In this document: positions 1 through 15,367 of the stretch, piece after piece | Numbering within the stretch: the stretch's first letter is position 1 | Layout of the letters: every line of letters starts with the position of its first letter | Source of the DNA: a virus | Taxonomy: Duplodnaviria; Heunggongvirae; Uroviricota; Caudoviricetes | Reading direction: 5' to 3' (one strand) | IMG/VR virus record: IMGVR_UViG_2923323785_000006 | Location: 1 to 16,386 of that record | Length of the DNA: 16,386 bases | The notes under the pieces: generated by a model | What the model was told of the DNA's origin: nothing | The model's database searches: none | What the model saw: the letters and a program-made list of their open reading frames with translations, nothing else | Made by a program: the position numbers and the translations under genes

Positions 1-88
1 TTATCTTCTGGTATTTAGCTATCCCTCATAAGTTAATTGCCGCTGAGATATCCTAAGCTCTAGCCTCTGAAAATACATTTATATTTCG

Positions 89-114
89 AAGCCCGCGATA
101 TTTTAAGCGGGCTT
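89..114 (+). terminator. Hairpin (aagcccgc / gcgggctt, 10-nt loop) followed by TTATTTTA; intrinsic terminator candidate downstream of tfa
   Basis: Seen in sequence: 8-bp GC-rich inverted repeat at 89-96 / 107-114, T-rich tract 115-122 on + strand. On the minus (tfa) strand the flank is A-rich, so function there is less certain. Confidence 0.45.
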
Positions 115-119
115 TTATT

Positions 120-701
120 TTAAACTTCAGGTATTACAGGCCACTCAATATCAGGTGCAGTTGATGTATCAACACGGTTCAGCAACACCCGATACTTTTT
201 CCAGGCTTCCAGCAATGAGGTTTCTTCCTCCGTTGCGATTTCCAGATCTACAGCATCCTGAAGTGGCGCAATATGCTCACTGGCTACCTGCATCAGGCTG
301 TTTTTTGTTTCTTCCGCCTCCCGGATCCGGAACAGTTTTTCTGCTTCTGCATCTTTCACCCAGGCTGTGCCGTTCCACTTCTGAAACTCCCCTTCCGGCG
401 ATAACCAGGTAACATTTTCCGGTAATGATCCGAGTTCAGAAATAAATAACGCGTCGCCGGAAGCCACGTCATAAACCGTTTTACCCCGATGATCTTCAAC
501 GAGATGCCACGATGACTCATCACTGTTGAAAACAGCCACGAAGCCAGCCGGAATATCTGGCGGTGCAATATAGGTACTGTTTGCTGGCAGACCTGTATGA
601 GGCGGAATATATGCGTCACCTTCACCAATAAATTCATTAGTTCCGGCCAGCAGATTATAAATTTTTATGGTCCGTGGTTGTTCACTCATTCTGAATGCCA
701 T
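120..701 (-). CDS. tfa: Tail fibre assembly protein (lambda Tfa-like, 193 aa)
   Basis: Translation [24 protein letters not shown]... is near-identical over its length to lambda Tfa as I recall it. ATG at 701..699 overlaps the stf stop (TAATG). Confidence 0.92.
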
Positions 702-2713
702 TATGCAAGCCTCACAATGTAGTTAAATGCGATGTTTTTGACGGTGTTTTCCGCGTTACCAGCAGCGTTAACGGTGATGGTGTGTCCATGTGAGCCAATC
801 GCAACAGAGTGCGTATGAGCACCAATACCGACAGTATGTGCGTGAGCACCTGCAGATGCGGCTGTGCCGCTGACACTATGAGTGTGCGCTCCTGCAGCAC
901 TTGTATTCACACTGGCCGTAGACACTACCTTATGTACTGACCCATTTTGTGACCACTGGCTGACTGCTGATGCGCCTGTGACACTATGAGTATGGTTTCC
1001 GGCACTTGCGGCTGTACCGCTCACACTGTGCGTATGCGCCCCGGTGTTATTCGTGGATTTAGTGCCGTAATCAAACGACGATGTGGTTTTCGTCCCCAAA
1101 TCCGTACTGGATGCGCTGGCGCTGTGGGTGTGCGATTTAATGCCGTCCTGTTCCTGAGACAATACGGCACGACCACTGGCAGGTTTGCCCTTAATCGTCC
1201 AGCCACGCATATCAGGGATCACGCCTGACGGATAAGCGGCTGCAAGTTTCGGGTATGCAGATTTGTCAAAAGTCTGCCCCTGCATCAGGGCATAACCAGA
1301 CGGAACGGTATCTGATGGCCACGGGATTGGTGCACCGACTGGGTAGCTTTCTGGTGGAAGATTTTTCGAGGTATAAACTTCTGCCCAGTCTTCCTCAAAA
1401 CCATAGCCATCTCTTGAGGAACGGTAGAACAGACCTCCATTTCTGTAATGTGCCTTCATCTGCAAGGTCCGGCAACTTCCGACTCCGGTATAGAAGTTAA
1501 CCAGAATATAGCTGTCGCCAGAGCGGGTGACATTGTAAGCGCCTGATTCGGCATTCCATGGAACGCCCCCATCCGCATCGGCATACGTATCCGTTGCCCT
1601 TCTGGCAAAAGCAGCCACATGCGCGGCGGTTAAAGTAATATCTTTGGAACCATCAAACTCAACACCAGAAACCAGTCTTGGCGTTTGCAGCTTTGTTGCT
1701 GTTAATGCATTACCGTTCAGACTTGCGGACAGTTTGGTTCCAATAACCAGTTCGCCGGTTGCGTTATCAATAGCAAACGGTCTTAATGTATTCCAGCCAC
1801 CATAAACATCACCTTGATTGGTAAGCAGCAGGTAAGTTTTAGCGCCATCATTACGCCATAATGCACCATACTCCCCACCTATCATTCGAATCTGATTACC
1901 ACCACGCGCTACAATTTCGTCTGTGGCAAAAAGTTTTTTGCACGACAAGTTATCGTTAACGATTAACGAATGAGACTCATAAAAACCACGCCCACTCTTA
2001 AAATCAAGGATAACGTCCGCCGCGATACATTCAGTCGCTGGATTTGTTGCCCCAAACTTATAGGTCGTATCATTAACAACGAGATCAGCACCAGGTGCGG
2101 ATATTGACAGGCCATCTTCGATAAACGCAAAAACAGGGAAAGCAGCGCCATCAACATAGAACACAGAGCGCAAATCATCGCCCTTATTACTCATCATTAT
2201 TGAGTGGATGGCTCGTTCATTGTTTTGATATTGCCAGAACATTCCATAAGCATAACGCCCCCTGTCAGTCCAGCCACCAGGCATAACAAATCCGTTAAAC
2301 TCGCAGTTATTCATCGGATCGCCTGCGGTTCGCGTTGCCGTGGTGATAATGACCCTTGATGCCAGTTCGCTTACTGAGCCAGCAGAACGCATAACAACAA
2401 CAGGGTAATATTTTCCAGATGTTGCACCTGCAGGAGCGTTAACCCGCACATAACGCATACCACGCTTATCAGCAAAGTCTGTTTTACTGACCGCGTTAAT
2501 GTTGTTCAGGAAGCGTCCCTTATCGGGTATATCAGCGCCGTTCTGGTCTTTCTGCAGACGTTTCTCAGCATTGTCATTGGCTGCTTTTACTGCCTTTGGC
2601 GTTGCCGCCAGCGTTTCAGACGTGCTGTTGGTCGCACTGCTGAGCTGTACTATCCCCTTTTTCGTCGTGCTCGCATCCTCAAGCGCCACGGCGGATGCAA
2701 TACCGGCGCGACG
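701..2713 (-). pseudogene. stf: 5'-truncated side tail fibre gene (C-terminal ~660 codons of a lambda Stf-like protein; ORF track begins at a GTG at 2689)
   Basis: Translation ...[34 protein letters not shown]... through the His-rich [15 protein letters not shown] repeats and C-terminal ...[29 protein letters not shown] matches the lambda Stf C-terminal part. Homology stops near 2700-2713 where the frame runs into a stop, so the N-terminal ~450 codons are missing. Confidence 0.88.
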
Positions 2714-2772
2714 ATGATGCGGGCCTGTGGAGTTCTGCCGATCTGACTTATGTCATTACCTATGAAATGTGA
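2701..2772 (+). pseudogene. 3' remnant of minor tail protein U gene (last ~23 codons)
   Basis: In-frame translation [23 protein letters not shown] matches the lambda gpU C-terminus as recalled; no upstream continuation. Confidence 0.6.
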
Positions 2773-2778
2773 GGACGA

Positions 2779-3238
2779 TATGCCTGTACCAAATCCAGCA
2801 ATACCGGTGAAAGGTGCCGGAACCACCCTGTGGGTTTATAACGGGAGCGGCGACTCTTATGCGAACCCGCTTTCAGACGTTGACTGGTCGCGTCTGGCTA
2901 AAGTTAAAGACCTGACGCCCGGCGAACTGACCGCTGAGTCCTATGACGACAGTTATCTCGATGATGAAGATGCGGACTGGACCGCGACCGGGCAGGGGCA
3001 GAAATCCGCCGGAGATACCAGCTTCACGCTGGCGTGGATGCCCGGAGAGCAGGGGCAGCAGGCGCTGCTGGCGTGGTTTAATGAAGGTGATACCCGTGCC
3101 TATAAAATCCGCTTCCCACCACAAGCACGCTGCCGCCACCTTTCAGGGCTGAACGCTGCCCCTTTTTACGACGCCTGCGTCGGGACAGGACAATCCGCGC
3201 GTTACCCAGCTTTATTACGGGCAAATCCCCCCGGTTAA
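2779..3238 (+). pseudogene. Major tail protein V, N-terminal fragment (~113 aa of V fused to 40 unrelated codons)
   Basis: [50 protein letters not shown]...AYKIRFP matches the lambda gpV N-terminus; identity ends near nt 3118, after which the ORF continues in unrelated sequence to a stop at 3238. GAGGA Shine-Dalgarno precedes the ATG at 2779. Confidence 0.85.
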
Positions 3239-3295
3239 CCTTGATTCTGGCCTGCGGATTTTTGACCGTGGCCCTTTTCAGCCTGGCCCTTTCCT

Positions 3296-3880
3296 TTACC
3301 AGTTTCCGGCGTACCTTTGTCTCACGGGCAACCTGTGACGCCGACTGCGATATCGCGGATGAAGCAACGCGGTTATCAGTTCATCCAGCGCGGCTGCTTT
3401 GTTCATGGCTTTGATGATATCCCGTTTCAGGAAATCAACATGTCGGTTTTCCAGTTCCGGAAAACGCCGCTGCACCGACAGGGGGATCCCGTCGAGAATA
3501 CTGGCAATTTCACCTGCGATCCGCGACAGCACGAAAGTACAGAATGCGGTTTCCACCACTTCAGCGGAGTCTCTGGCATTTTTCAGCTCCTGTGCGTCGG
3601 CCTGCGCACGCGTAAGTCGATGGCGTTCGTACTCAATAGTCCCTGGCTGGAGATCTGTCTCGCTGGCCTGCCGCAGTTCTTCAACTTCCCGGCGCAGCTT
3701 TTCGTTCTCAATTTCAGCATCCCTTTCGGCATACCATCTTATAACGGCGGCAGAGTCATAAAGCACCTCATTACCCTTGCCACCGCCTCGCAGAACGGGC
3801 ATTCCCTGTTCCTGCCAGTTCTGAATGGTACGGATACTCGCACCGAAAATGTCAGCCAGCTGCTTTTTGTTGACTTCCAT
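3296..3880 (-). CDS. nohD: Terminase small subunit Nu1 homologue with replaced C-terminus (194 aa)
   Basis: MEVNKKQLADIFGASIRTIQNWQEQGMPVLRGGGKGNEVLYDSAAV... is near-identical to lambda Nu1 up to ...AAALDELI (about residue 171), then diverges (ITALLHPRYRSRRHRLPVRQRYAGNW). No gpA large terminase gene follows. Confidence 0.9.
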   Translation of the reverse strand: MEVNKKQLADIFGASIRTIQNWQEQGMPVLRGGGKGNEVLYDSAAVIRWYAERDAEIENEKLRREVEELRQASETDLQPGTIEYERHRLTRAQADAQELKNARDSAEVVETAFCTFVLSRIAGEIASILDGIPLSVQRRFPELENRHVDFLKRDIIKAMNKAAALDELITALLHPRYRSRRHRLPVRQRYAGNW

Positions 3881-4057
3881 TGTTCATCCCACGGCCAAAA
3901 ACAGAGAAAGGAAACGACAGAGGCCCAAAAGCTCGTTTTCAGCACCTGTCGTTTCCTTTCTTTTCAGGGGGTATTTTAAATAAAAACATTAAGTTACGAC
4001 GAAGAAGAACGGAAATACCTTAAACCGGAAAATTTTCATAAATAGCGAAAACCCGCG
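3881..4057 (-). promoter_or_regulatory. cosB region (Nu1-binding R sites and IHF site between cosN and the Nu1 start)
   Basis: Reverse complement reproduces the lambda left-end leader. R-site-like repeats seen at about 3906-3921, 3946-3961 and 3999-4014 (cgtttcc(t/g)ttct motifs and their complements). Confidence 0.75.
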
Positions 4058-4069
4058 AGGTCGCCGCCC
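4058..4069 (-). promoter_or_regulatory. cosN cohesive-end sequence (GGGCGGCGACCT on minus strand)
   Basis: Plus strand aggtcgccgccc is the exact reverse complement of the 12-nt lambda cohesive end, flanked by lambda-like left-end and right-end sequence. Confidence 0.85.
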
Positions 4070-4268
4070 CGTAACCTGTCGGATCGCCGGAAAGGACCCA
4101 CAAAATGATAATAATTATCATCTACATGTCACAACGTGCATCTACGCCATCAAACCACGTCAAATAATCAATTATGACGCAGGTATCGTATTAATTGATC
4201 TGCATCAACTTAACGTAAAAACAACTTCAGACAATACAAATCAGCGACACTGAATACGGGGCAACCTC

Positions 4269-4463
4269 ATGTCAACTAAGAACAGAACCCGCAGAACAAC
4301 AACCCGCAACATCCGCTTTCCTAACCAAATGATTGAACAAATTAACATCGCTCTTGAGCAAAAAGGGTCCGGGAATTTCTCAGCCTGGGTCATTGAAGCC
4401 TGCCGTCGGAGGCTAACGTCAGAAAAGAGAGCATATACATCAATTAAAAGTGATGAAGAATGA
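4269..4463 (+). CDS. ylcI: Small basic protein (64 aa), lambda right-end / DLP12 ylcI-like; possible ribbon-helix-helix fold
   Basis: ATG at 4269, MSTKNRTRRTTTRNIRFPNQMIEQINIALEQKGSGNFSAWVIEACRRRL...; position between cos and ybcW matches the DLP12 order as I recall it. Symbol assigned by position and length, not verified. Confidence 0.6.
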   Translation: MSTKNRTRRTTTRNIRFPNQMIEQINIALEQKGSGNFSAWVIEACRRRLTSEKRAYTSIKSDEE

Positions 4464-4627
4464 ACATCCCGCGTTCTTCCCTCCGAACAGGACGATATTG
4501 TAAATTCACTTAATTACGAGGGCATTGCAGTAATTGAGTTGCAGTTTTACCACTTTCCTGACAGTGACAGACTGCGTGTTGGCTCTGTCACAGGTTAAGT
4601 AGTTTGAATGATTAGCAGTTATGGTGA

Positions 4628-4834
4628 TCAGTCAACCACCAGGGAATAATCCTTCATATTATTATCGTGCTTCACCAACGCTGCCTCAATTGCCCTGAAT
4701 GCTTCCAGAGACACCTTATGTTCTATACATGCAATTACAACATCAGGGTAACTCATAGAAATGGTGCTATTAAGCATATTTTTTACACGAATCAGATCCA
4801 CGGAGGGATCATCAGCAGATTGTTCTTTATTCAT
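4628..4834 (-). CDS. ybcW: Small prophage protein YbcW-like (68 aa)
   Basis: ATG at 4834 with GGAG 9 nt upstream; translation [40 protein letters not shown]... matches my recollection of DLP12 YbcW. Confidence 0.7.
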
Positions 4835-5119
4835 TTTGTCGCTCCATGCGCTTGCTCTTCATCTAGCGGTTAAAATATTACTTCAAATCTTTCTGTATGA
4901 AGGTTTGAGCACGTTGGCCTTACATACATCTGTCGGTTGTATTTCCCTCCAGAATGCCAGCAGGACCGCACTTTGTTACGCAACCAATACTATTAATTGA
5001 AAACATTCCTAATATTTGACATAAATCATCAACAAAACACAAAGAGGTCAGACCAGATTGAAGCGATAAAAACGATAATGCAAACTACGCGCCCTCGTAT
5101 CACATGGAAGGTTTTACCA

Positions 5120-5530
5120 ATGGCTCAGGTTGCCATTTTTAAAGAAATATTCGATCAAGTGCGAAAAGATTTAAACTGTGAATTGTTTTATTCTGAACTA
5201 AAACGTCACAATGTCTCACATTATATTTACTATCTAGCCACAGATAATATTCACATTGTGTTAGAAAACGATAACACCGTGTTAATAAAAGGACTTAAAA
5301 AGGTTGTAAATGTTAAATTCTCAAGAAATACGCATCTTATAGAAACGTCCTATGATAGGTTGAAATCAAGAGAAATCACATTTCAGCAATACAGGGAAAA
5401 TCTTGCTAAAGCAGGAGTTTTCCGATGGATTACAAATATCCACGAACATAAAAGATATTACTATACCTTTGATAATTCATTACTATTTACTGAGAGCATT
5501 CAGAACACTACACAAATCTTTCCACGCTAA
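5120..5530 (+). CDS. ybcV: DUF1398-family protein YbcV-like (136 aa)
   Basis: ORF track starts at a TTG (4997); the internal ATG at 5120 has a GGAAGG Shine-Dalgarno 8 nt upstream and gives 136 aa ([43 protein letters not shown]...), the length I recall for YbcV. Confidence 0.75.
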
Positions 5531-5820
5531 ATCATAACGTCCGGTTTCTTCCGTGTCAGCACCGGGGTGTTGGCATAATACAATGCATGTACGCGCTAAA
5601 CCCTGTGTGCATCGTTTTTAATTATTCCCGGACACTCCCGCAGAGAAGTTCCCCGTCAGGGCTGTGGACATAGTTAATCCGGGAATACAATGACGATTCA
5701 TCGCACCTGGCATACATTAATAAATATTAACAATATGAAATTTCAACTCATTGTTTAGGGTTTGTTTAATTTTCTACACATACGATTCTGCGAACTTCAA
5801 AAAGCATCGGGAATAACACC

Positions 5821-6114
5821 ATGAAAAAAATGCTACTCGCTACTGCGCTGGCCCTGCTTATTACAGGATGTGCTCAACAGACATTTACTGTTCAAAACAA
5901 ACAGACAGCAGTAGCACCAAAGGAAACCATCACCCATCATTTCTTCGTTTCTGGAATTGGGCAGAAGAAAACTGTCGATGCAGCTAAAATTTGTGGCGGC
6001 GCAGAAAATGTTGTTAAAACAGAAACCCAGCAAACATTCGTAAATGGATTGCTCGGTTTTATTACTTTAGGCATTTATACTCCGCTGGAAGCGCGTGTGT
6101 ATTGCTCAAAATAA
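5821..6114 (+). CDS. borD: Bor outer-membrane lipoprotein (serum-resistance protein, 97 aa)
   Basis: MKKMLLATALALLITGCAQQ... has a lipoprotein signal peptide with lipobox LITGC; near-identical to lambda Bor; opposite strand to the lysis genes as in lambda. Confidence 0.93.
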   Translation: MKKMLLATALALLITGCAQQTFTVQNKQTAVAPKETITHHFFVSGIGQKKTVDAAKICGGAENVVKTETQQTFVNGLLGFITLGIYTPLEARVYCSK

Positions 6115-6145
6115 TTGCATGAGTTGCCCATCGATATGGTCAGCT

Positions 6146-6607
6146 CTATCTGCACTGCTCATTAATATACTTCTGGGTTCCTTCCAGTTGTTTTTGCATA
6201 GTGATCAGCCTCTCTCTGAGGGTGAAATAATCCCGTTCAGCGGTGTCTGCCAGTCGGGGGGAGGCTGCATTATCCACGCCGGAGGCCGTGGTGGCTTCAC
6301 GCACTGACTGACAGACTGCTTTGATGTGCAACCGACGACGACCAGCGGCAACATCATCACGCAGAGCATCATTTTCAGCTTTCGCATCAGCTAACTCCTT
6401 CGTGTATTTTGCATCGAGCGCAGCAACATCACGCTGACGCATCTGCATGTCAGTAATTGCCGCGTTCGCTAGCTTCAGTTCTCTGGCATTTTTGTCGCGC
6501 TGGACTTTGTAGGCGATTGCGTTATCACGGTAATGATTGACCGCCCATGACAGGCTGACGATGATGCAGATAATCAGAGCGGATATAATCGCGGTTACTC
6601 TGCTCAC
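6146..6607 (-). CDS. rzpD: Rz i-spanin (153 aa, GTG start)
   Basis: (M)[59 protein letters not shown]... is near-identical to lambda Rz. GTG at 6607..6605 overlaps the R stop (GTGA); GGGGG Shine-Dalgarno 7 nt upstream. Confidence 0.9.
6205..6387 (-). CDS. rzoD: Rz1 o-spanin lipoprotein embedded in the +1 frame of Rz (60 aa)
   Basis: [60 protein letters not shown]: lipobox VVGC and proline-rich region, matches lambda Rz1 as recalled; lies entirely inside Rz. Confidence 0.88.
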
Positions 6608-7101
6608 TGTTGCCCCCACAAACAGACTTCACGCTCAATCTCACGACGAGTCATCAGGCCTTTCCATTGCTTACCGCCAGCGTATGTCCAGCGACGCAGC
6701 TGATCACATGCGCCTTTGATATCGCCCTGGTTTATTTTGCGAAGAAGCGTCGATGTTCTAAAATTGCCAGCACCCACGTTGTAAACGAATGAGTAAAGAG
6801 CGCCGCGCGTTGTTTCCGGTATATCGACTTTGATATACGGGTTAATTTGTCTGGCGACAGTGGCAAGGTCTTTATTCAAGAGTGCTTTGCATTCTGCTTT
6901 GGTATACGTTTTACCGAGCATGATGTCTTTTCCGGTGTGTCCGTGACATACAGTCCATACACCAACAATATCTTTGTATGGTATGTAGCTGACACCTTCC
7001 AGACCATCGTTACCACTTGGGCCAGTGATTAACACTGATGCTATAGCAATTGCTCCGCCACCAATAGCAGCAGCAACGGCTTTTCGTAATGATGGAGGCA
7101 T
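6604..7101 (-). CDS. rrrD: SAR endolysin (P21 R-type lysozyme, 165 aa)
   Basis: N-terminal signal-anchor-release segment ([20 protein letters not shown]) followed by a T4-lysozyme-like catalytic region; ATG at 7101 overlaps the holin stop (TAATG). Confidence 0.9.
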
Positions 7102-7316
7102 TATTCACCTCTCGCGGCCTTGCGCTTATCTTCTTTAATCTTGAAATAAAGGTTTGTCAGGTACGTCAGCAGGCCAAATACCAGGCTACCCAGCACACCT
7201 ATTGCTGCCCACTGTGAGGGAGTGACTTTATCGAGCAGCTGTAAAAACCAGTAACCGGCACTACCTGCTGAGGTGCCATAGGCGACTCCAGTTGTTAACT
7301 TATCCATGAATTTCAT
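7101..7316 (-). CDS. essD: Pinholin (S21-type, 71 aa, dual-start motif MKFM)
   Basis: [71 protein letters not shown]: two transmembrane segments, Lys before the second Met (holin/antiholin dual start); GAGGTGGGG Shine-Dalgarno upstream of 7316. The ORF-track extension to 7361 is rejected. Confidence 0.88.
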
Positions 7317-7361
7317 AACCCCACCTCGCAGACAAAGCGGGTGTAAATTGAGGGAATACAA

Positions 7362-7904
7362 CGTATCGCAAAAAAGCAGAAACGTAACTGACTCCGAGTC
7401 AGTGAATAACTCAGGTATTGAGTTATCAGCTAATATCGAGACTCAAAAAATGGAAAAACCAGCGCGACGGCGGGTTTAAGCTGTGTGACGAAGTAACCAC
7501 TCTTAACAGCATAACCAATTTTTTACGTACGTAAACCACTGAATGATATTTATGAGAATGCTACCGAGTGTTCAAAACATCACCACAAATACATAAGAAA
7601 ACTTCAACAAATAACCAATAAATAATTTCCAGTGTTATTTTTAGCTGGTTTAAATTAAACAGACGAATTATAGAACCACCATAAATAACAGCCATTAATA
7701 TAAATTAGCTAATAGATTTATTTTTGTTCAAATAAGAGCCATAAATAGGTTTCGATAGAAAAAGTTCAGATAAAAATAGAGATCTACTTCACAAATTAAA
7801 TGAGAAACTAAAACTTACATCTTGAAATAATCACATTGATTAGATGAATATTTATCGCGCAGTGACATCATTTTTTAATAATAGTTCAAAAAAAAGGGCT
7901 CACG
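7362..7904 (+). promoter_or_regulatory. AT-rich ~540-bp non-coding region upstream of nmpC (porin promoter / regulatory region, possible H-NS target)
   Basis: Seen in sequence: long A/T runs (7560-7900) and no credible ORF; lies between the divergent holin and porin starts. Confidence 0.4.
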
Positions 7905-9002
7905 ATGAAAAAATTAACAGTGGCAATTTCTGCTGTAGCTGCATCAGTACTGATGGCGATGTCTGCTCAGGCAGCTGAAATTTATAATAAAGACAGTAAC
8001 AAGCTGGATCTGTACGGGAAAGTTAATGCCAAGCACTACTTTTCCTCTAACGATGCAGATGATGGTGATACTACTTATGTTCGTCTGGGCTTCAAAGGCG
8101 AAACCCAAATCAACGATCAGCTGACTGGTTTCGGTCAGTGGGAATATGAATTCAAAGGCAACCGCGCTGAATCTCAAGGTTCCTCCAAAGACAAAACCCG
8201 TCTTGCATTTGCAGGCCTGAAATTCGGTGACTACGGCTCAATCGATTACGGCCGTAACTACGGTGTAGCATACGACATCGGTGCGTGGACTGACGTTCTG
8301 CCAGAATTCGGTGGCGATACCTGGACCCAAACAGATGTGTTCATGACTGGTCGCACCACTGGTGTTGCAACCTATCGTAACAACGACTTCTTTGGTCTGG
8401 TTGATGGTCTGAACTTTGCTGCTCAGTACCAAGGCAAAAACGATCGTAGCGATTTCGATAACTACACCGAAGGTAACGGTGATGGCTTCGGTTTCTCTGC
8501 TACCTATGAATACGAAGGATTCGGTATCGGTGCAACTTATGCGAAATCTGATCGTACCGACACTCAAGTTAATGCAGGGAAAGTTCTTCCTGAAGTATTT
8601 GCTTCCGGTAAAAATGCAGAAGTTTGGGCCGCAGGTCTGAAATATGACGCTAACAACATTTACCTGGCCACTACCTATTCTGAAACCCAGAATATGACTG
8701 TATTTGCTGATCACTTCGTTGCTAATAAAGCTCAAAACTTCGAAGCTGTTGCACAATATCAGTTCGATTTCGGTCTGCGTCCGTCCGTTGCTTACCTGCA
8801 ATCTAAAGGTAAGGATCTTGGAGTATGGGGCGATCAGGACTTAGTCAAATATGTTGATGTAGGTGCAACCTATTACTTCAACAAAAATATGTCTACTTTC
8901 GTTGATTACAAAATCAACCTGCTTGACAAAAATGACTTCACTAAAGCACTCGGTGTAAGCACTGATGACATCGTTGCTGTAGGTCTGGTTTACCAGTTCT
9001 AA
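7905..9002 (+). CDS. nmpC: General outer-membrane porin NmpC (OmpC/OmpF/PhoE family), intact, 365 aa
   Basis: Signal peptide [23 protein letters not shown], then [17 protein letters not shown]... and C-terminal ...VAVGLVYQF (terminal Phe, beta-barrel signature); classic enterobacterial porin motifs throughout. Confidence 0.93.
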
Positions 9003-9018
9003 TCTGATTACGAAAAAG

Positions 9019-9053
9019 ATATGTTGCGGGAGGCGTTGCCTCCCCAACATATA
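9019..9053 (-). terminator. Long hairpin (about 15 bp with one bulge) followed on the minus strand by CTTTTTCG; candidate tR'-like terminator of the late leader
   Basis: Seen in sequence: atatgttgcgggaggc / gcctccccaacatat inverted repeat; U-tract on the minus strand only; sits about 140-170 nt downstream of the Q stop. Confidence 0.5.
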
Positions 9054-9140
9054 AGTGGCTCCCTCAAGCCACTTCCTTTAGGAGCACAACCTTGCTTCTA
9101 ACTATATAAACCTTCTGTTATATATTACCCTTTATTTTTG

Positions 9141-9165
9141 GGGGCGTTGCAACGCCCCATTTTTA
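9141..9165 (+). terminator. Intrinsic terminator (ggggcg-ttgcaa-cgcccc followed by ATTTTTA), probable nmpC terminator
   Basis: Seen in sequence: perfect 6-bp GC stem, 6-nt loop, T-tract on + strand. Confidence 0.65.
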
Positions 9166-9191
9166 ATAACTTTCAGTAAACAATTGGCATA

Positions 9192-9575
9192 TTAATTAGA
9201 GTTATTAACAACGATATCCATCTCTAACCGGATATCTAATGCCATTAACATCCCTTCAATTATGCCCTCAGCCTTCTGTAACCTTTTCCCGATATAACCA
9301 TCAGAGCAGCAATGCTTACCTGCCAGTGACATGAATGTCATACCGACTACATAATAATCTACTAATAAATCGTGCAAATCGCTGTTGTTCTTTTTCAGAC
9401 GGGCCATGCACCCGCAAATGATCATCGCGTCATCGTCACAACATTGCGGGCGAGATTTTACTTTTGAAGGAATTAATCCCTTAAAACCGGCGGCAATGGA
9501 CGACCAGGTCACATCTTCATGATTATTAGCCGCCCACGCTCCCCAACGTTCAAGAACCATCTGAATATCACGCAT
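9192..9575 (-). CDS. quuD: Late-gene antiterminator Q (127 aa)
   Basis: [62 protein letters not shown]... matches my recollection of DLP12 QuuD; ATG at 9575 with GGAGAAAG Shine-Dalgarno; position directly upstream of the lysis cassette. Confidence 0.85.
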
Positions 9576-9592
9576 TAACTTTCTCCACAAAA

Positions 9593-10588
9593 TCAGGCCA
9601 GCACACCAATCGCCAGTGCGCGATCGATAAAACGAAATATCAGCTCCAGCTGGGAGCCATACTTCTCTTCAAATGCCACGGTATCCGCATGCAGTTCGTC
9701 GTGGTGTTTTCTGCACAAAGGCAGCACAAAAAGGTCATGCGCTTTTGTACCCATTCCACCCTGACCATGGCCTATCAGATGATGCGGATCATCAGCTGGC
9801 TTTCCACAACATGCACACGGCTGCGTCTTAACCCAGCGCGTGTACTGTTCATTAACCCAGCGACGACGTTTGGGGCGTAACATAAAAGACTCCGGCGACT
9901 CCGGATCCACTTTCAGCGCCAGCACCTTTTTCGCTTTATCCTGGATAATGCTGGTGGCAGGAACCGAAGGCACAAGGTCACTTTCCCGGGTGACAGACGG
10001 CAAAACAGACTTCGGTAATCTCAGTGCCTTACGGGCTGCGCTTTCCGGTAAGGCATCCGCCAGGTCATTACGAACCAGCCACCAGCACAGTTCCGGCATT
10101 GTCACGGCATGGTTATCATTAAAATCGAGATCCCGACGGACTACAGACAACACCCAATGGGCACAGTTATCCGTTGCCATTGATTCCAGCCGCTCCGTGA
10201 ACTGATCACGTAACTGATTATCGCAGTGCCAGCACAGACGGATTGCGCCCGGCGCGTGTCGCATTGTGGTCATGTTCTCGCTGTGCCAGTCGGAATGAGG
10301 CCACTGGCAGCCTTTTTCACGAAGTAACCAGCTTTCAAGACATTCCACCCCACCAGCACGACGAATCACTGCCTCATTACGGAACACGGCCCGAACGGCA
10401 GGATCATCCGCCAGCGGTTGTGATGCCGCGGGAACGGCACCACTGGCGAAAGATGAATAATGCTCCGGCTCAGGCTCCAGCAGTACACGCCCCTGCATAA
10501 ACAGGGGCATCAGCTCTGAACCGGGCCTGAACAATACGATCCCCATACGCGGGGCAATTTCAGGGGTCAGTAGTGCTCTCACGGTCAC
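9593..10588 (-). CDS. DUF968-like (YdfU-like) protein with C-terminal HNH-like metal-binding motif (about 329-331 aa; start GTG at 10588 or 10582)
   Basis: C-terminal ...[46 protein letters not shown]... has CxxC, His-His and C..HH..H spacing typical of HNH nucleases; additional CWHC motif mid-protein. Sits immediately upstream of Q, like ydfU-quuQ in the Qin prophage (from memory). Confidence 0.7.
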
Positions 10589-10589
10589 C

Positions 10590-11387
10590 TCAATGAACGG
10601 TATCGAGCAGCTTTAACAGCTCAGGGAATCGGGATTCGAAGAAATGCGGCTGCGTCTCGCGCGGATTTGCGGGACTGGTGATGTTCTTGCCGAACATGCA
10701 GCCTTTCGCTGTCAGCGACCAGAATTTTTTGATGTTGTTAATAGCGGTACGGCTGTATCGTTCGCGCTGCTCGACGATCCCCAGCTTCACCATCTGGTGA
10801 TATGCCTGATTAGCTGTCAGGCGGATACCATACTGCTTCAGCAGTGCACTCAGTGACAGCGTGGGACGGCTTGAGCCATCAGGCGCGTCAGCAGGAGCAT
10901 CAATGGCATAGCGCGGTGCCAGATTCGGTAAGCCAACAGCCTCCTGGAGTTTCTGACAGGCACCAAGCACTGAAGAGTTAGACAGGTTTAACTCCCGGCG
11001 CATAAAGTCCAGCAGAATCACGCCAGCCTGCATCTTGTCAGCAGCCTGCCCGGATAATTTTTCCGATGCGCTGGTTACCATATCGAAAGTACGGATCACC
11101 TTCAGATGGAATGACGGGCTGATCCACATTGCATAGGCATACACCAGTTCTTTGCAGACATACGTCCCCTGGTTATTTCCGCCACGAATAACGTTAACTG
11201 GCTCTATATTGACCGAGTTGCAAATCTGCAACTCGCTTATTAAACGTTCAGTTTGCTCATTGCGGAGCCAGAATGCAGGCTTATGCTTATCCAGAGAACC
11301 GGCAGCCCTGTGCAGATCGTTCAGGCTGTAACGCCCATAAGCATCACGACGAACTTCAATACCATCAATGACCATCAGATTATTCAT
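10590..11387 (-). CDS. KilA-N domain protein with ANT/KilAC-like C-terminal half (antirepressor-like, 265 aa)
   Basis: N-terminus MNNLMVIDGIEVRRDAYGRYSLNDLHRAAGSLDKHKPAFWLRNEQTERLISEL... resembles the KilA-N fold family; ATG at 11387 with AGAGGAGAAA Shine-Dalgarno. The ORF-track GTG extension to 11420 is rejected. Confidence 0.72.
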   Translation of the reverse strand: MNNLMVIDGIEVRRDAYGRYSLNDLHRAAGSLDKHKPAFWLRNEQTERLISELQICNSVNIEPVNVIRGGNNQGTYVCKELVYAYAMWISPSFHLKVIRTFDMVTSASEKLSGQAADKMQAGVILLDFMRRELNLSNSSVLGACQKLQEAVGLPNLAPRYAIDAPADAPDGSSRPTLSLSALLKQYGIRLTANQAYHQMVKLGIVEQRERYSRTAINNIKKFWSLTAKGCMFGKNITSPANPRETQPHFFESRFPELLKLLDTVH

Positions 11388-11406
11388 ACTTCGTTTCTCC
11401 TCTTGA

Positions 11407-11796
11407 TCAGGCGGCTGCACCCGCCGTTTTCTCGTACTTACTGATAGTGATCTCGACCTTCCCTTCCGGGATAACCGGTCCCCACTCCACCAGCATTCTT
11501 TTCACCTGGCTGTCGTCTTCCCACACACCCGCGTGGGTCAGGGCGTCAAACAGCGCCTTGTTATAGTTGTCCAGATCGCGGATCCGGTTATCCGGAGGAA
11601 ACAACACGATCTCCACTGAAGCAGGTGCCGACGTTGGTTTCGGCAGACGACGTAACTGCTCAACTATTGCTGTGCACGCCGCACTCTGGAATTTTCGCCC
11701 CGCCGCGCTTATCAGGCTCTTACCAGCAAATGCCCCTTTGTTGGGGTGTCGCCAGTAGGTGTTCACGCTGGGTGGAAAAGGCAGAATCAGCTTCAT
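11407..11796 (-). CDS. rusA: RusA-family Holliday junction resolvase (129 aa)
   Basis: MKLILPFPPSVNTYWRH... and RDLDNYNKALFDALTHAGVWEDDSQV match RusA catalytic-region motifs. ATG at 11796 overlaps the stop of the upstream gene (ATGA); GAGGGGG Shine-Dalgarno. Confidence 0.85.
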   Translation of the reverse strand: MKLILPFPPSVNTYWRHPNKGAFAGKSLISAAGRKFQSAACTAIVEQLRRLPKPTSAPASVEIVLFPPDNRIRDLDNYNKALFDALTHAGVWEDDSQVKRMLVEWGPVIPEGKVEITISKYEKTAGAAA

Positions 11797-12119
11797 ACTT
11801 TCAGCCCCCTCTCATGTAACCAGTGGGCTGCACGCAGCCTGGCGTTTTCCTCACCAGCAAGCAGTGCGCGGATAATCCCGGCCACCTCGCTGTCGTCGTC
11901 CTTCACCGCGGTATGAAGCGTGATGCCCCGGGCCACGCCACGCTTTATCGTGATGACGCCTTTTTTCTCCAGTGCGCGAAGATGCTCCACCGCTGCATTC
12001 ACTGAACGGTATCCCAGCATGGTAGCCACCTCCTGATTGGTTGGCGGGAAGCCACGTTCTTTCTGGTAAGAAATCAGCATATCCAGCACCTGCTGCTGGC
12101 ATTGAGTTAACGTCGTCAT
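11793..12119 (-). CDS. LexA N-terminal DNA-binding-domain-only protein (about 108 aa; no S24 peptidase domain)
   Basis: MTTLTQCQQQVLDMLISYQKERGFPPTNQEVATMLGYRSVNAAVEHLRALEKKGVITIKRGVARGITL aligns position-by-position with the LexA winged-helix domain (recalled from memory); the protein ends about 40 aa later. ATG at 12119 overlaps the upstream stop (TAATG); GGGGG Shine-Dalgarno. Confidence 0.8.
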   Translation of the reverse strand: MTTLTQCQQQVLDMLISYQKERGFPPTNQEVATMLGYRSVNAAVEHLRALEKKGVITIKRGVARGITLHTAVKDDDSEVAGIIRALLAGEENARLRAAHWLHERGLKV

Positions 12120-12370
12120 TAAGCCCCCACGTAATTCCCTGACAGATACCACTCTTCACCCGATACAGCGCGCTTGCTGCTTTTCCGTAAACACCGCTCA
12201 CGACGCGCAAGAAAATTGTTTCGCTCTTGCTGGGAGTGGCTTTCACGGAATGCCGCCATCCACACCGTTGCAGCACGACGGTATAAGCCCCTGGACTCCA
12301 GTTCTTCCGCCTGGCGGGTCAGGCACAAAATCACCCGGGGATCGTTAGTGCCGACATAGAAATTGTGCAC
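12119..12370 (-). CDS. Small PerC/Pch-like putative transcriptional activator (83 aa, GTG start)
   Basis: Motif AEELESRGLYRRAATVWMAAF resembles the LE..G.WRRAA..W core I recall for the PerC family; family assignment is from memory and the start codon is GTG without a strong Shine-Dalgarno. Confidence 0.5.
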   Translation of the reverse strand: MHNFYVGTNDPRVILCLTRQAEELESRGLYRRAATVWMAAFRESHSQQERNNFLARRERCLRKSSKRAVSGEEWYLSGNYVGA

Positions 12371-12406
12371 AGGTCTGGATTCACGAACTGGTTGCGGTTC
12401 CGGCTC

Positions 12407-12607
12407 CTACGGTATCTCAGTCAGCCGCGGGAAATGTCTGCGTGTATCCCCTTCACAACGGTGAGCCACACGCCCACTCTGACGTAACTTGCTTGCTGAC
12501 TGCAGAACGCGCTGTCGTGAGTAACCTGCAAAAGCATCAGCAATGTCTCCGGAAGTACACCCCGGATGGGCTTCAATGAATTTCTGAACGTCATTCAAAA
12601 GACTCAT
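12407..12607 (-). CDS. Small hypothetical protein (66 aa), possible winged-helix DNA-binding fold; first gene of the minus-strand operon
   Basis: ATG at 12607 with GGGGGTGA Shine-Dalgarno 6 nt upstream; MSLLNDVQKFIEAHPGCTSGDIADAFAGYSRQRVLQSASKLRQSGRV... The ORF-track extension to 12730 is rejected (Arg/Gln-rich, no ribosome-binding site). Confidence 0.45.
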   Translation of the reverse strand: MSLLNDVQKFIEAHPGCTSGDIADAFAGYSRQRVLQSASKLRQSGRVAHRCEGDTRRHFPRLTEIP

Positions 12608-12849
12608 GATCACCCCCTGAATCCTGCCGGGATCTGGCTGTAGTCCACGTTGTCGTAACTGGCTTTGAAGTACGGGTCTTCGCGTTTTTCGGTGTACGTG
12701 CTGACTATTCTGCAGGAAGACTATGGACAATTACTGACTCTTGCCGGTGAACCTGACGGAAAACTACGCGCAGCAGGTCATTAATATCGTTCTTAATAAA
12801 CTGATTATTTATCTCATCACTGAATATCTTTATATAGTGAGGACTTATT
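12608..12849. promoter_or_regulatory. Divergent intergenic region between the minus-strand (nin/Q/late) and plus-strand (yfdQ...int) operons; presumed promoters, no repressor gene
   Basis: No ORF with repressor features on either strand; AGTGAGGA Shine-Dalgarno for the first plus-strand gene at 12836-12843; promoter hexamers not confidently assignable by eye. Confidence 0.4.
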
Positions 12850-13674
12850 ATGTCTCAGAACTTAGACGCAACCGCAATTAATCAAATCCATGCCCTTATT
12901 TCTGCTCAGGGTGTTAATGAAATTATCAGTAAGATTTGTGCCGATGCTGTGGCATTGCCTGAGAATTTCCGCATTCATGATCTGGAAAAATTTAATTTAA
13001 ATCGCTTCCGTTTCCGTGGTGCGCTTTCCACTGCCAGCATCGATGACTTTACCCGTTATTCTAAAGATCTTGCAGATGAAGGCACCCGCTGCTTTATCGA
13101 TGCCGATAATATGCAAGCCGTCAGTGTGCTTAACCTGGGTACTATTGATGAACCAGGTCACGCAGATAACACCGCCACTCTCAAACTGAAAAAGACAGCA
13201 CCGTTCTCTGCCCTGTTGTCTGTTAACGGCGAGCGTAACTCCCAGAAGTCACTGGCAGAATGGATTGAAGACTGGGCCGACTACCTTGTGGGCTTTGATG
13301 CTAATGGTGACGCCATTCAGGCAACCAAAGCGGCTGCGGCGATCCGTAAAATCACAATTGAAGCGAACCAGACCGCTGATTTTGAAGATAATGACTTCAG
13401 CGGCAAACGCTCCCTGATGGAGTCTGTCGAAGCGAAGACCAAAGACATTATGCCAGGGGCATTTGAATTTAAATGCGTTCCGTTTGAAGGTCTGAAAGAA
13501 CGTCCATTTAAATTACGCCTCAGCATTATCACTGGCGATCGTCCTGTACTGGTTCTGCGCATTATTCAGCTGGAAGCGGTGCAGGAAGAAATGGCTAACG
13601 AATTTCGTGATCTGCTTGTTGAGAAATTCAAAGACAGCAAAGTAGAAACCTTTATTGGTACTTTCACCGCCTGA
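12850..13674 (+). CDS. yfdQ: YfdQ-like protein (DUF2303-type, 274 aa)
   Basis: [21 protein letters not shown]...; length and sequence match my recollection of CPS-53 YfdQ; first gene of a four-gene cluster. Confidence 0.75.
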
Positions 13675-13686
13675 TTTCATTACTGC

Positions 13687-13710
13687 AAATGCCCCTGCGG
13701 GGGCATTTAT
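13687..13710 (+). terminator. Hairpin (tgcccc-tgcg-ggggca) followed by TTTAT; candidate attenuator or terminator between the first two cluster genes
   Basis: Seen in sequence: aaatgcccctgcgggggcattt near-perfect inverted repeat directly after the yfdQ-like stop. Confidence 0.5.
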
Positions 13711-13801
13711 GGAAACGTAATTAACTCAATAATCACCGGATGGTGAGGGCTTCCTTTTACCAGAATTCAGCGCGGTGCAGTGCATACACGTGGAGAACAA
13801 A

Positions 13802-14338
13802 ATGTCATTTATTAAAACTTTTTCCGGGAAGCATTTTTATTATGACAAGATAAATAAAGACGACATCGATATTAACGATATCGCGGTTTCCCTTTCAAAT
13901 ATCTGTCGCTTTGCCGGTCATCTTTCGCACTTCTACAGCGTCGCCCAACATGCGGTTCTTTGCAGCCAGCTGGTGCCGCAGGAATTTGCTTTTGAAGCGT
14001 TAATGCATGATGCAACAGAAGCGTATTGCCAGGACATTCCCGCACCACTGAAACGCCTTCTTCCTGACTATAAACGGATGGAAGAAAAAATAGACGCCGT
14101 AATCCGTGAGAAATACGGGTTACCCCCAGTTATGAGTACACCCGTGAAATATGCCGATCTCATCATGCTGGCAACCGAACGCCGCGATCTCGGGCTTGAT
14201 GATGGCTCTTTCTGGCCTGTACTGGAAGGCATCCCGGCAACAGAGATGTTCAACGTGATTCCACTGGCACCGGGTCATGCCTACGGGATGTTTATGGAAC
14301 GTTTTAACGATTTATCGGAGTTACGCAAATGCGCATGA
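13802..14338 (+). CDS. yfdR: HD-domain phosphohydrolase, YfdR-like 5'-deoxynucleotidase (178 aa)
   Basis: ATG at 13802 with GGAGAA Shine-Dalgarno; HD-domain metal-binding signature ...FAGHLSHFYSVAQHAVL...MHDATEAY...; length equals K-12 YfdR as recalled. The ORF-track GTG start at 13775 is rejected. Confidence 0.85.
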   Translation: MSFIKTFSGKHFYYDKINKDDIDINDIAVSLSNICRFAGHLSHFYSVAQHAVLCSQLVPQEFAFEALMHDATEAYCQDIPAPLKRLLPDYKRMEEKIDAVIREKYGLPPVMSTPVKYADLIMLATERRDLGLDDGSFWPVLEGIPATEMFNVIPLAPGHAYGMFMERFNDLSELRKCA

Positions 14339-14691
14339 ATGTTTTCGAAATGGAAGGGTTTCTTCGCGGGAAATGTGTACCGCGAGATCTGAAAGTGAAC
14401 GAAACAAATGCTGAGTACCTGGTACGTAAATTCGACGCGCTTGAAGCTAAATGTGCGGCACTGGAAAACAAAATAATACCAGTGTCAGCTGAACTGCCAC
14501 CAGCAAATGAAAGTGTTCTGTTATTTGATGCTAATGGAGAAGGCTGGCTGATTGGCTGGCGTTCTCTCTGGTACACCTGGGGACAAAAAGAAACCGGAGA
14601 ATGGCAGTGGACATTTCAGGTCGGGGACCTTGAAAACGTCAATATCACTCACTGGGCAGTAATGCCAAAAGCACCGGAGGCTGGAGCATAA
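14329..14691 (+). CDS. yfdS: YfdS-like protein (120 aa)
   Basis: MRMNVFEMEGFLRGKCVPRDLKVNETNAEYLV...; overlaps the upstream stop by 10 nt, and its stop overlaps the next start (TAATG). Confidence 0.7.
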   Translation: MRMNVFEMEGFLRGKCVPRDLKVNETNAEYLVRKFDALEAKCAALENKIIPVSAELPPANESVLLFDANGEGWLIGWRSLWYTWGQKETGEWQWTFQVGDLENVNITHWAVMPKAPEAGA

Positions 14692-14996
14692 TGACCACAT
14701 TTACCAATAAAGAACTGATTAAAGAAATCAAAGAACGAATCAGCAGCCTAGAGGTTCGAGACGATATTGAGCGCCGTGCTTATGAAATCGCACTCGTATC
14801 TCTGGAAGTAGAGCCAGATGAACGCGAAGCCTATGAATTATTCATGGAAAAGCGTTTCGGTGACTTAGTAGATCGTCGGAGAGCAAAAAACGGCGATAAC
14901 GAATACATGGCATGGGATATGACTCTCGGTTGGATCGTCTGGCAGCAACGAGCTGGTATCCATTTTTCAACAATGACACAGCAAGAGGTGAAATAA
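14691..14996 (+). CDS. yfdT: YfdT-like protein (101 aa)
   Basis: MTTFTNKELIKEIKERISSLEVRDD...; start and stop both share bases with the neighbouring genes (TAATG junctions). Confidence 0.7.
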   Translation: MTTFTNKELIKEIKERISSLEVRDDIERRAYEIALVSLEVEPDEREAYELFMEKRFGDLVDRRRAKNGDNEYMAWDMTLGWIVWQQRAGIHFSTMTQQEVK

Positions 14997-15367
14997 TGGA
15001 GCCATACAGCCTCACACTCGATGAGGCCTGTCAGTTTCTTAAGATATCCAGACCAACCGCCACCAACTGGATACGAACAGGCCGCCTACAGGCAACACGT
15101 AAAGATCCAACCAAGCCAAAATCTCCTTACCTCACAACACGGCAAGCTTGCATTGCGGCGCTTCAGTCTCCGCTGCATACTGTCCAGGTGAGCGCGGGTG
15201 ATGGCATAACAGAGGAAAGAAAATGTCACTCTTCCGCAGAAATGAAATATGGTATGCCTCGTATTCGCTCCCGGGCGGGAAACGAATTAAGGAATCTCTT
15301 GGCACAAAGGACAAGCGGCAAGCTCAGGAGTTGCACGACAAGCGAAAAGCAGAACTCTGGCGAGTAG
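14996..15367 (+). CDS. Excisionase-like HTH protein (AlpA/Xis family); 3' end uncertain, reading frame overlaps int by 145 nt
   Basis: ATG at 14996 with GAGGTGA Shine-Dalgarno; [32 protein letters not shown] resembles excisionase-type HTH domains; position immediately upstream of int. The tail beyond about residue 65 may be a frameshift artefact. Confidence 0.55.

Follow-up and report, generated by a model that had tools for sequence, protein, structure and literature searches.

An apparent regulatory cassette in a cryptic Escherichia coli prophage is very probably the scar of a single 4.2-kb deletion

The region between positions 11793 and 12849 of a cryptic prophage in Escherichia coli MB06101 is very probably the scar left when a lambdoid prophage of the PhiR29_1/SfV type lost 4.2 kb in one deletion. 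The prophage lies at the argU/intD (DLP12) site and constitutes the window, the whole 16,386-nucleotide stretch analysed here, whose sequence is identical to NZ_CM129890.1. An earlier note on this DNA had described the region as a compact regulatory cassette: three small putative DNA-binding proteins, beside a divergent promoter region, in the place where a lambdoid phage carries cro, cII, O and P. The features recognised in the region and at its borders are listed below (window positions).

11407–11796, minus strand: rusA, an intact Holliday-junction resolvase gene of 129 aa (Pfam RusA, 7.4e-15; product 98% identical to SfV Orf43).
11793–12119, minus strand: intact gene for a 108-aa LexA-head-only protein (SfV Orf42 family, phrog_362), comprising a LexA N-terminal winged-helix domain and a helical tail of ~35 aa.
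12119–12613, minus strand: yfdN pseudogene of the PerC family, 164 codons from a GTG or 162 from the ATG at 12607 (RefSeq "PerC family transcriptional regulator, internal stop").
12119–12370, minus strand: 83-aa ORF, the C-terminal PerC domain of YfdN, in frame downstream of the TAG (Pfam PerC, 2.3e-10; alignment).
12407–12409, minus strand: premature stop in yfdN, CAG to TAG, codon 67 from the ATG and codon 69 from the GTG (codon-by-codon comparison with relatives).
12410–12607, minus strand: 66-aa ORF, the N-terminal domain of YfdN (profile positions 15–78 of phrog_1324, the full-length YfdN family).
12610–12705, minus strand: 3' stump, the last 32 codons, of an O-like replication initiator gene (yfdO; "DNA replication protein O" in PhiR29_1; RefSeq partial, "missing N-terminus").
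12701–12705, no strand: deletion junction, a 5-bp microhomology (CTGAC) present in both parental sequences (three-way alignments).
12701–12784, plus strand: 3' stump of yfdP, the last 27 codons and the stop (RefSeq partial, "missing N-terminus").
12785–12849, plus strand: native AT-rich 65-bp intercistronic spacer between yfdP and yfdQ with the yfdQ ribosome-binding site, of the same length and position as in K-12, SfV, 2H10 and PhiR29_1.
12850–13674, plus strand: yfdQ (DUF2303, 274 aa; Pfam DUF2303, 2.4e-91; product 97.8% identical to SfV Orf31), the first intact gene of the leftward yfdQRST block.

The window is collinear with the temperate phage PhiR29_1 (PV340556.1; from E. coli ECOR13) at 97–99% nucleotide identity, and is also collinear with SfV and 2H10. 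Identity to PhiR29_1 is 97.2% over window positions 6037–12119, 99.3% over 12116–12705 and 98.9% over 12701–15205, and the PhiR29_1-type map is thus followed on both sides of the scar (6.1, 0.59 and 2.5 kb). Relative to this phage 4,235 bp are absent, corresponding to PhiR29_1 positions 7332–11566, and the same pattern of a missing segment recurs in alignments with 2H10, SfV, K-12 and EC50. The collinear gene order in PhiR29_1 runs from Bor through lysis genes, a porin, Q, DUF968, KilA-N, rusA, the LexA-like gene, yfdN and O, and then yfdP, yfdQ, yfdR, yfdS and yfdT. Unlike the window, PhiR29_1 has kept the 4,235 bp with O, YmfM, YmfL, a cro-like gene, cI, one further ORF and the 5' part of yfdP. 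The segment missing here encodes, in 2H10, an initiator (HTH_36 + DnaD_N), an Ash-family protein, a CII of the CP76 family, a Cro-like protein and an S24 repressor.

Gene order in PhiR29_1, SfV and 2H10 shows where the supposed cassette belongs. From cI a leftward series runs through further genes to yfdP and yfdQ, and in the opposite direction cro is followed by a cII-like gene, further genes, O, yfdN, in some cases dam, the LexA-head gene, rusA, KilA-N, DUF968 and Q. SfV (NC_003444; orf31–orf46) has the same architecture, with cI facing cro-orf36-orf37-orf38-orf39 (replication)-orf40 (YfdN)-dam-orf42 (LexA head)-orf43 (RusA)-orf44 (KilA-N)-orf45-Q; its Orf42 and Orf40 are each 94% identical to the window products. 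Unlike the window, the SfV genome is complete and functional; its operator region is annotated, and its replication gene is a different allele (71% identity over the C-terminal 35 aa). The dam gene stands between yfdN and the LexA-like gene in PhiR29_1 but is absent in the window, 2H10 and EC50. The small ORFs therefore do not occupy the cro-cII-O-P position that had been proposed for them; in the intact phages PhiR29_1, SfV, SfII, mEp460 and 2H10, both yfdN and the LexA-head gene come after the replication gene and before rusA. It is the microhomology-mediated deletion of 4,235 bp that brought them up to yfdQ.

Elsewhere in the window RefSeq annotates partial tail and tail-fibre genes, and genes for the large terminase, portal and capsid are absent. 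A reading of the element as a phage satellite or PICI was rejected because the Q, lysis, small-terminase and tail-fibre remnants are collinear with a full phage.

The scar itself is composed of recognisable pieces. The O-like stump falls within the 590-bp alignment of 12116–12705, where identity is 99.3% with PhiR29_1 and 95.4% with K-12 yfdO'; the stump aligns with residues 238–272 of SfV Orf39 (tblastn, E 1.4e-12) and matches phrog_26426, "replication protein" (2e-5). The yfdP stump aligns with residues 94–120 of SfV Orf32 at 96% identity (tblastn) and matches phrog_17027 (4.6e-13). Together with the native 65-bp spacer, these two stumps make up 12608–12849, which had been taken for a divergent promoter region. 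A simple consensus scan, blind to weak or non-sigma-70 promoters and to read-through, found no sigma-70-like site in 12608–12849 (1.1 expected from shuffles) and no promoter-like site in 11700–13000, and a repeat search of the latter interval returned no local direct-repeat families or palindromes that might represent operators or iterons. Two terminator-like matches in 11700–13000 are both antisense to the genes and at chance level, and an Rfam scan gave no match in the locus.

Of the two copies of CTGAC between which the deletion ran, one lies in the O-like gene and the other in yfdP. The event took out cI and the cro-like gene, the cII-like (YmfL) and YmfM genes, a further ORF and the 5' part of yfdP; 90% of the O-like gene also went, along with the iteron-like repeats spaced 15 bp apart inside it. 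Judging from the annotated gene order, the cI-cro operator/promoter region would have been lost as well. What looked like a cassette is the part of the rightward operon that follows, with yfdN, the LexA-head gene and rusA translationally coupled as in the intact phages; yfdN has since been inactivated by the CAG to TAG change, and the LexA-head gene is still intact. The tight packing with overlapping stops and starts reported earlier was borne out, with ATGA at the LexA-like stop and rusA start (11793–11796) and TAATG between yfdN and the LexA-like gene (12117–12121).

A 151-bp query spanning the junction was covered to at least 80% in only one of 5,426 complete E. coli genomes, MB06101. Since the record is labelled "whole genome shotgun", three places in the genome match the region and the join falls at a short shared sequence, the junction could in principle be a chimeric assembly of two similar prophage copies, the real prophage being intact. 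We consider this extremely improbable. A shared sequence of five bases is much too short to deceive an assembler, and each flank follows a single phage map collinearly and on the expected strand. The rest of the element is independently degraded, and other E. coli prophages have also lost DNA from this interval, though between different end points.

One of these relatives, K-12 CPS-53 (KpLE1; yfdM'-yfdN-yfdO'/yfdP-yfdQRST), resembles the window in lacking immunity genes between the O-like gene and yfdP, in having a truncated O-like gene, and in its yfdN and yfdQRST at 95–98% nucleotide identity. Its deletion is nonetheless separate, with different end points. Unlike the window, CPS-53 retains 708 bp of yfdO containing 15-bp-spaced TCAGATTTTGA repeats that are bound by SrsR; its yfdP and yfdN are complete, it has neither a LexA-head gene nor rusA, and it uses a different attachment site. 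The TCAGATTTTGA repeats with 15-bp spacing lie inside both the PhiR29_1 O gene and K-12 yfdO', and no TCAGATTTTGA cluster that could form an iteron array was found in the window.

Searches for the missing functions agree with the deletion. Homologues of cI, cro, the cII-like gene and a complete replication gene were found nowhere in the window by tblastn with SfV and 2H10 early proteins; for Cro the best match was not significant (E 0.055) and lay outside the locus. A six-frame Pfam scan of 11400–15300 detected no S24, HTH_3, Cro or replication domain in any frame, and RefSeq annotates no cI-like repressor in the window. The earlier observation that a cI-like (HTH plus S24) repressor is lacking thus holds. 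The companion claim that the element has no replication genes and is replication-dead stands insofar as no complete module exists; it had overlooked the vestige of the O-like gene within the inspected interval (12610–12705), where only the last 32–35 codons of the initiator remain. On sequence grounds, these results support an element that cannot replicate and has no repressor. With both ancestral early promoters gone in the deletion, transcription of the remaining genes is most likely slight or absent.

The three small minus-strand ORFs noted between rusA and the divergent region do exist, in the interval from rusA to yfdQ, but they represent two genes. The 66-aa and 83-aa ORFs share one frame, are separated by the TAG and 12 further codons, and sum to the 162/164-codon yfdN of K-12, EC50, SfV, 2H10 and PhiR29_1. 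All five of these relatives have CAG at the position of the stop, and the intact yfdN of PhiR29_1 differs from the window allele by four nucleotides. With the in-frame TAG, no uninterrupted frame for full-length YfdN (162–164 aa) is present in the window. Among the 5,426 genomes, a 71-bp stretch around the TAG is 100% identical in MB06101 only, and the other 277 genomes carrying the stretch reach at most 98.6%. The junction and the stop-codon allele each occur in this strain only, and both events are therefore recent.

Both predicted domains have some basis, although neither ORF is a gene of its own. The 66-aa ORF, described earlier as winged-helix-like, is modelled by AF2 as three helices (pLDDT 74), and its best Foldseek matches are all winged-helix proteins (TM 0.55–0.6), none of them significant (E 0.5–2); it also has a weak MarR-type PHROG match (2.8e-5). 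This truncated N-terminal YfdN product could be made if the region is transcribed. The PerC-like assignment of the 83-aa ORF was sound as to domain (PF06069, 41 bits vs a cut-off of 22.6), but the ORF is a C-terminal fragment of YfdN that the ORF finder called from an internal GTG with no Shine-Dalgarno-like sequence at the usual distance upstream. Full-length YfdN had no match in a PDB sequence search, and literature searches returned yfdN only as "the K-12 PerC homologue" and in one table entry.

These results bear directly on the alternative that a module exchange had put three DNA-binding proteins and a divergent promoter (12608–12849) in place of cro-cII-O-P, and that the host had domesticated this cassette to regulate its own or other-prophage genes. 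DNA-binding domains are indeed present, and the gene for the LexA-head protein is intact. YfdN counts as the PerC homologue of K-12 (PMC5931665), and the related K-12 CPS-53 units yfdO'NMLK and yfdPQ, whose expression is driven from a region to which the host factor SrsR binds, influence peroxide tolerance (PMC9181523). However, functional phages have the same genes, order and overlaps downstream of the replication gene, the microhomology junction is flanked by O-like and yfdP stumps, and a single gene with a nonsense codon accounts for two of the three "proteins". The region yielded no sequence resembling a promoter or an operator, this prophage has lost the counterpart of the K-12 segment that SrsR binds as well as the early promoters, and the configuration occurs in one genome only and is therefore not conserved. 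We regard this alternative as highly unlikely; of the compact regulatory cassette, what stands is the intact LexA-head gene.

The LexA domain was correctly recognised, though not the start of its gene, which is the ATG at 12119 (108 aa), as in all relatives, and not the GTG at 12152. Within the 119-aa ORF from that GTG (11793–12152), residues 12–76 match Pfam LexA_DNA_bind (PF01726) at 3.7e-19 (68.7 bits vs a cut-off of 23.7), and the protein matches phrog_362 over its full length (7e-58). Its TIGR00498 lexA score of 67.4 bits is below the 110.95 cut-off and covers only profile positions 1–91 of 203. Residues 2–70 align without gaps to residues 2–70 of E. coli LexA (PDB 1lea, 3jso; E 8e-16), and the recognition-helix segment RS-NAA-EHL-AL-KKG is common to both. 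E. coli LexA also has the Ala84-Gly85 cleavage site and an S24 domain with its Ser/Lys dyad, whereas the phage protein has neither and ends at residue 108, which implies that it does not undergo RecA*-stimulated self-cleavage. In place of the LexA dimerisation domain is the ~35-aa tail, helical in a low-confidence single-sequence AF2 model (pLDDT 52) that is too poor for inferring fold or dimer and was used for secondary structure alone.

If made, the LexA-head protein would be a DNA-binding protein that RecA* does not inactivate and that recognises LexA-box-like half-sites. Against PhiR29_1 its gene shows eight synonymous and three non-synonymous differences (pN/pS 0.12), a ratio that resembles purifying selection but probably mirrors differences between the alleles of functional phages, not selection acting within MB06101; RusA differs from that of PhiR29_1 at two residues. 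Proteins of this kind (SfV Orf42/phrog_362) occur in many lambdoid phages, and DNA similar to this region is present in about half of complete E. coli genomes. One may speculate that the protein is a LexA mimic, uncleavable by RecA*, that binds SOS-box-like sites and could damp or retune either the SOS response of the host or genes that LexA controls in other prophages, and that it may be kept in cryptic prophages for this reason, but we think this very unlikely. Matches to the SOS box CTGT-N8-ACAG with one mismatch allowed number five in the window vs 5.65 expected, none of them near the locus, and literature searches found no experimental characterisation of the phage LexA-like protein. Nothing here supports regulation of host or other-prophage genes by this protein.

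The locus is a case of ordinary prophage decay, and RefSeq already annotates yfdN as a pseudogene and both stumps as partial genes. The value of the analysis lies mainly in correct annotation, with two cautions for reading DNA from its ORFs: two adjacent small "regulators" may be one broken gene, and an AT-rich gap beside divergent ORFs may be a deletion scar. For the prophage itself, the locus offers a clear example of disarming, in which one microhomology deletion strips out the repressor and both early promoters along with the replication initiator and its presumed origin, and a gene close by then decays by point mutation.

Over the 2.4 kb around the locus, the sequence matches E. coli strain MB06101 (NZ_CM129890.1) at 100% identity. 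The window extends from a tail-fibre-assembly gene to intD and adjoins fimZ and a tRNA-Arg gene, the location of the DLP12 attachment site. RefSeq annotation depicts a heavily degraded element.

RefSeq-annotated content of the window
Partial tail-fibre, tail-terminator, tail-tube and tail genes
Small terminase gene, lysis genes, porin, quuD, DUF968, KilA-N, rusA
After rusA, 'LexA family protein', then 'yfdN, PerC family, internal stop'
Then a partial 'helix-turn-helix domain-containing protein, missing N-terminus' and a partial hypothetical protein
Then yfdQ, yfdR, phage protein, yfdT, partial Xis-like gene, intD

The porin gene (7905-9002, +; 365 aa; named OmpD in the phage PhiR29_1) lies intact between Q and the lysis genes, a phage-borne outer-membrane porin apparently complete in a cryptic prophage. 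A full-length Rfam match to IS009 (RF02111; 160-358, -; 229 bits, gathering score 117) sits inside the tail-fibre-assembly gene (120-701). Upstream of intD, a Xis/TorI-like HTH_17 gene (14912-15367, +, and 14996-15061) is annotated as partial, missing its C-terminus; a 151-aa ORF in its frame extends into the start of int, which makes damage to the excision function probable as well.

Between rusA and yfdQ, the earlier note had placed three small putative DNA-binding proteins, next to a divergent promoter region (12608-12849), where cro, cII, O and P would be expected. Our reading of this interval is as follows.

Features of the locus
11793-12119 (-), 108-aa LexA-head protein, SfV Orf42 family
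12119-12613 (-), yfdN pseudogene, containing an 83-aa ORF (12119-12370, -) and a 66-aa ORF (12410-12607, -)
12610-12705 (-), 3' stump of an O-like gene
12701-12705, deletion junction
12701-12784 (+), 3' stump of yfdP
12785-12849, yfdP-yfdQ spacer

ORF calling recovered all three ORFs, with Pfam matches to LexA_DNA_bind for the LexA-domain ORF (11793-12152; 3.7e-19) and to PerC for the 83-aa ORF (2.3e-10), and none for the 66-aa ORF. The last was modelled as three helices (pLDDT 74), and its nearest solved folds are all winged-helix (Stf76, MarR, Lrp/AsnC, MecI and a LexA; TM ~0.55-0.6, with non-significant E-values), in agreement with a weak MarR-type PHROG match (2.8e-5); the label 'winged-helix-like' is therefore plausible. 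The described overlaps of stops and starts are also visible, as ATGA at the LexA-like/rusA boundary and TAATG at the yfdN/LexA-like boundary. The count of three proteins, however, is wrong: the 66- and 83-aa ORFs share a single frame of 165 codons (12613-12119), whose sole disruption in alignment with YfdN of K-12, EC50, SfV and 2H10 is a CAG to TAG change at 12409-12407. The 83-aa start called by the ORF finder is simply the first in-frame GTG past this TAG, and inspection revealed no suitably spaced Shine-Dalgarno-like sequence ahead of it. In every relative compared, the start codon of the LexA-like gene is the ATG at 12119, which gives 108 aa. Thus, yfdN is not an intact PerC-family gene. 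It differs from its PhiR29_1 counterpart by four nucleotides (one synonymous, two missense and one nonsense). Beside the nonsense codon, codons 65-66 (12410-12415, -) read ATA CCG (Ile-Pro) in the window and AGA GCG (Arg-Ala) in K-12 and EC50, with Arg-Ala also in SfV and 2H10. The Ile-Pro allele also occurs in PhiR29_1, which leaves the TAG-creating C to T change as the only one private to MB06101.

Intact relatives identify what is missing. A phage collection held 51 records with 95-99% identical DNA, and query coverage was at most 58% in each of the best 25 because each carries extra DNA where the window has its scar. The closest known intact counterparts are PhiR29_1, SfV and 2H10, whereas the K-12 CPS-53 region is a parallel, independently truncated remnant. 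PhiR29_1 (L007, PV340556.1; from ECOR13) is the closest relative and also shares the late genes Q, porin, S, R, Rz and Bor.

Alignment of the window with PhiR29_1
Window 6037-12119, PhiR29_1 1-6095, 97.2% identity
Window 12116-12705, PhiR29_1 6742-7331, 99.3% identity
Window 12701-15205, PhiR29_1 11567-14071, 98.9% identity

The first gap corresponds to the dam gene and the second to 4,235 bp. CTGAC at the second break is common to both parental sequences, making 12701-12705 a 5-bp microhomology junction. To its left, tblastn placed the final 32 codons of the O-like gene (SfV Orf39 residues 238-272, E 1.4e-12); on the other side lie the final 27 codons of yfdP (96% identity), followed by the native yfdP-yfdQ spacer of 65 bp, which all relatives have at this position. 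The supposed promoter interval contained no sigma-70-like sites (1.1 expected) and, in a repeat search, no operator-like repeats. The divergent promoter was thus a misreading of two gene stumps and a spacer, and the proposed replacement cassette a misreading of this scar together with a split pseudogene.

Gene order leads to the same conclusion. SfV is arranged yfdQ(orf31)-yfdP(orf32)-orf33-cI, operator, cro-orf36-orf37-orf38-orf39(replication), then orf40(YfdN)-dam-orf42(LexA head)-orf43(RusA)-orf44(KilA-N)-orf45-Q, and 2H10 has this arrangement minus dam. The usual place of yfdN and the LexA-head gene is therefore downstream of the replication gene, for which they are not a substitute. By Pfam, the 2H10 genes missing from the window encode an initiator (HTH_36 + DnaD_N), an Ash-family protein, CII (CP76 family), a Cro-like protein and an S24 repressor. 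When all SfV and 2H10 early proteins served as tblastn queries, nothing came back beyond the rusA-to-yfdQ-region genes and stumps, and a six-frame Pfam scan of 11400-15300 detected only RusA, LexA_DNA_bind, PerC, DUF2303, YfbR-like and Xis-type HTH_17. The earlier note was therefore correct that no cI-like gene and no working replication module remain, and by the defining features tested the locus is neither an immunity region nor a replication module. The cause is deletion, not module replacement. In PhiR29_1 (6092-6745), SfV and SfII, yfdN and the LexA-head gene are separated by the dam methyltransferase gene, which is cleanly absent at window 12119, as in 2H10 and EC50, these three having the same TAATG junction; dam thus behaves as an optional mosaic module, and its absence is a mosaic variant, not a product of decay.

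A 151-bp query spanning the junction was covered in just one of 5,426 complete E. coli genomes, and the 71 bp around the TAG were 100% identical in that genome alone, with at least one difference in 277 others and in PhiR29_1. Both lesions are thus recent and, within the collection, limited to this genome, which is evidence against a cassette that is conserved and selected. Because RefSeq annotation and the standard picture of prophage decay already capture the locus, the finding is an ordinary one.

The LexA-head protein survives. Residues 2-70 of E. coli LexA align to it without gaps (E 8e-16), and the segment matching LexA 38-54 reads RSvNAAvEHLrALeKKG (RSpNAAeEHLkALaRKG in LexA). In the LexA-operator structure (PDB 3jso) the CTGT half-site is read by Ser39, Asn41, Ala42 and Glu45; all four are conserved in the window protein, and Glu44 is changed to Val. 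Pfam, a lexA profile and the six-frame scan detected no cleavage site and no S24 domain, and for want of the latter the 108-aa protein does not qualify as a LexA. Its C-terminal tail of ~35 aa has two predicted helices (low-confidence model). A full-length match to phrog_362 (7e-58) indicates that a head-only architecture is typical of the family. Most likely the protein regulates by binding DNA, with a half-site specificity like that of LexA and without being open to inactivation by RecA*. A box scan showed no enrichment of SOS boxes in the window, and literature searches returned no experimental work on this phage protein.

SrsR, a LysR-type host factor that activates yfdONMLK and yfdPQ, has its strongest binding site in the K-12 genome in the yfdO'/yfdP interval (PMC9181523). 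The reported boxes, TCAGATTTTGA (PMC9181523), recur in four or five copies at an exact period of 15 bp within the annotated yfdO pseudogene of CPS-53 (L002 10063-10133), and these repeats are also present within the intact PhiR29_1 O gene (7823-7860). In position and periodicity they are reminiscent of lambda-type origin iterons, and by analogy this host factor may bind a relic phage origin. Alignment and a repeat check of the window show that the segment is deleted there. The equivalent of the K-12 host-controlled region is thus lost and, judging from the position of cI and cro, so are the phage early promoters; the remaining genes are therefore most likely poorly transcribed.

DNA between the rightward operon and yfdP is also lost, with different end points in each, from K-12 CPS-53, EC50 (L003) and PCP06173 (L004). 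These three prophages and the window all lack the cI/cro region and keep yfdQRST, with rightward genes kept in varying amounts, a pattern that could reflect repeated loss of the immunity/replication region or preferential retention of its flanks.
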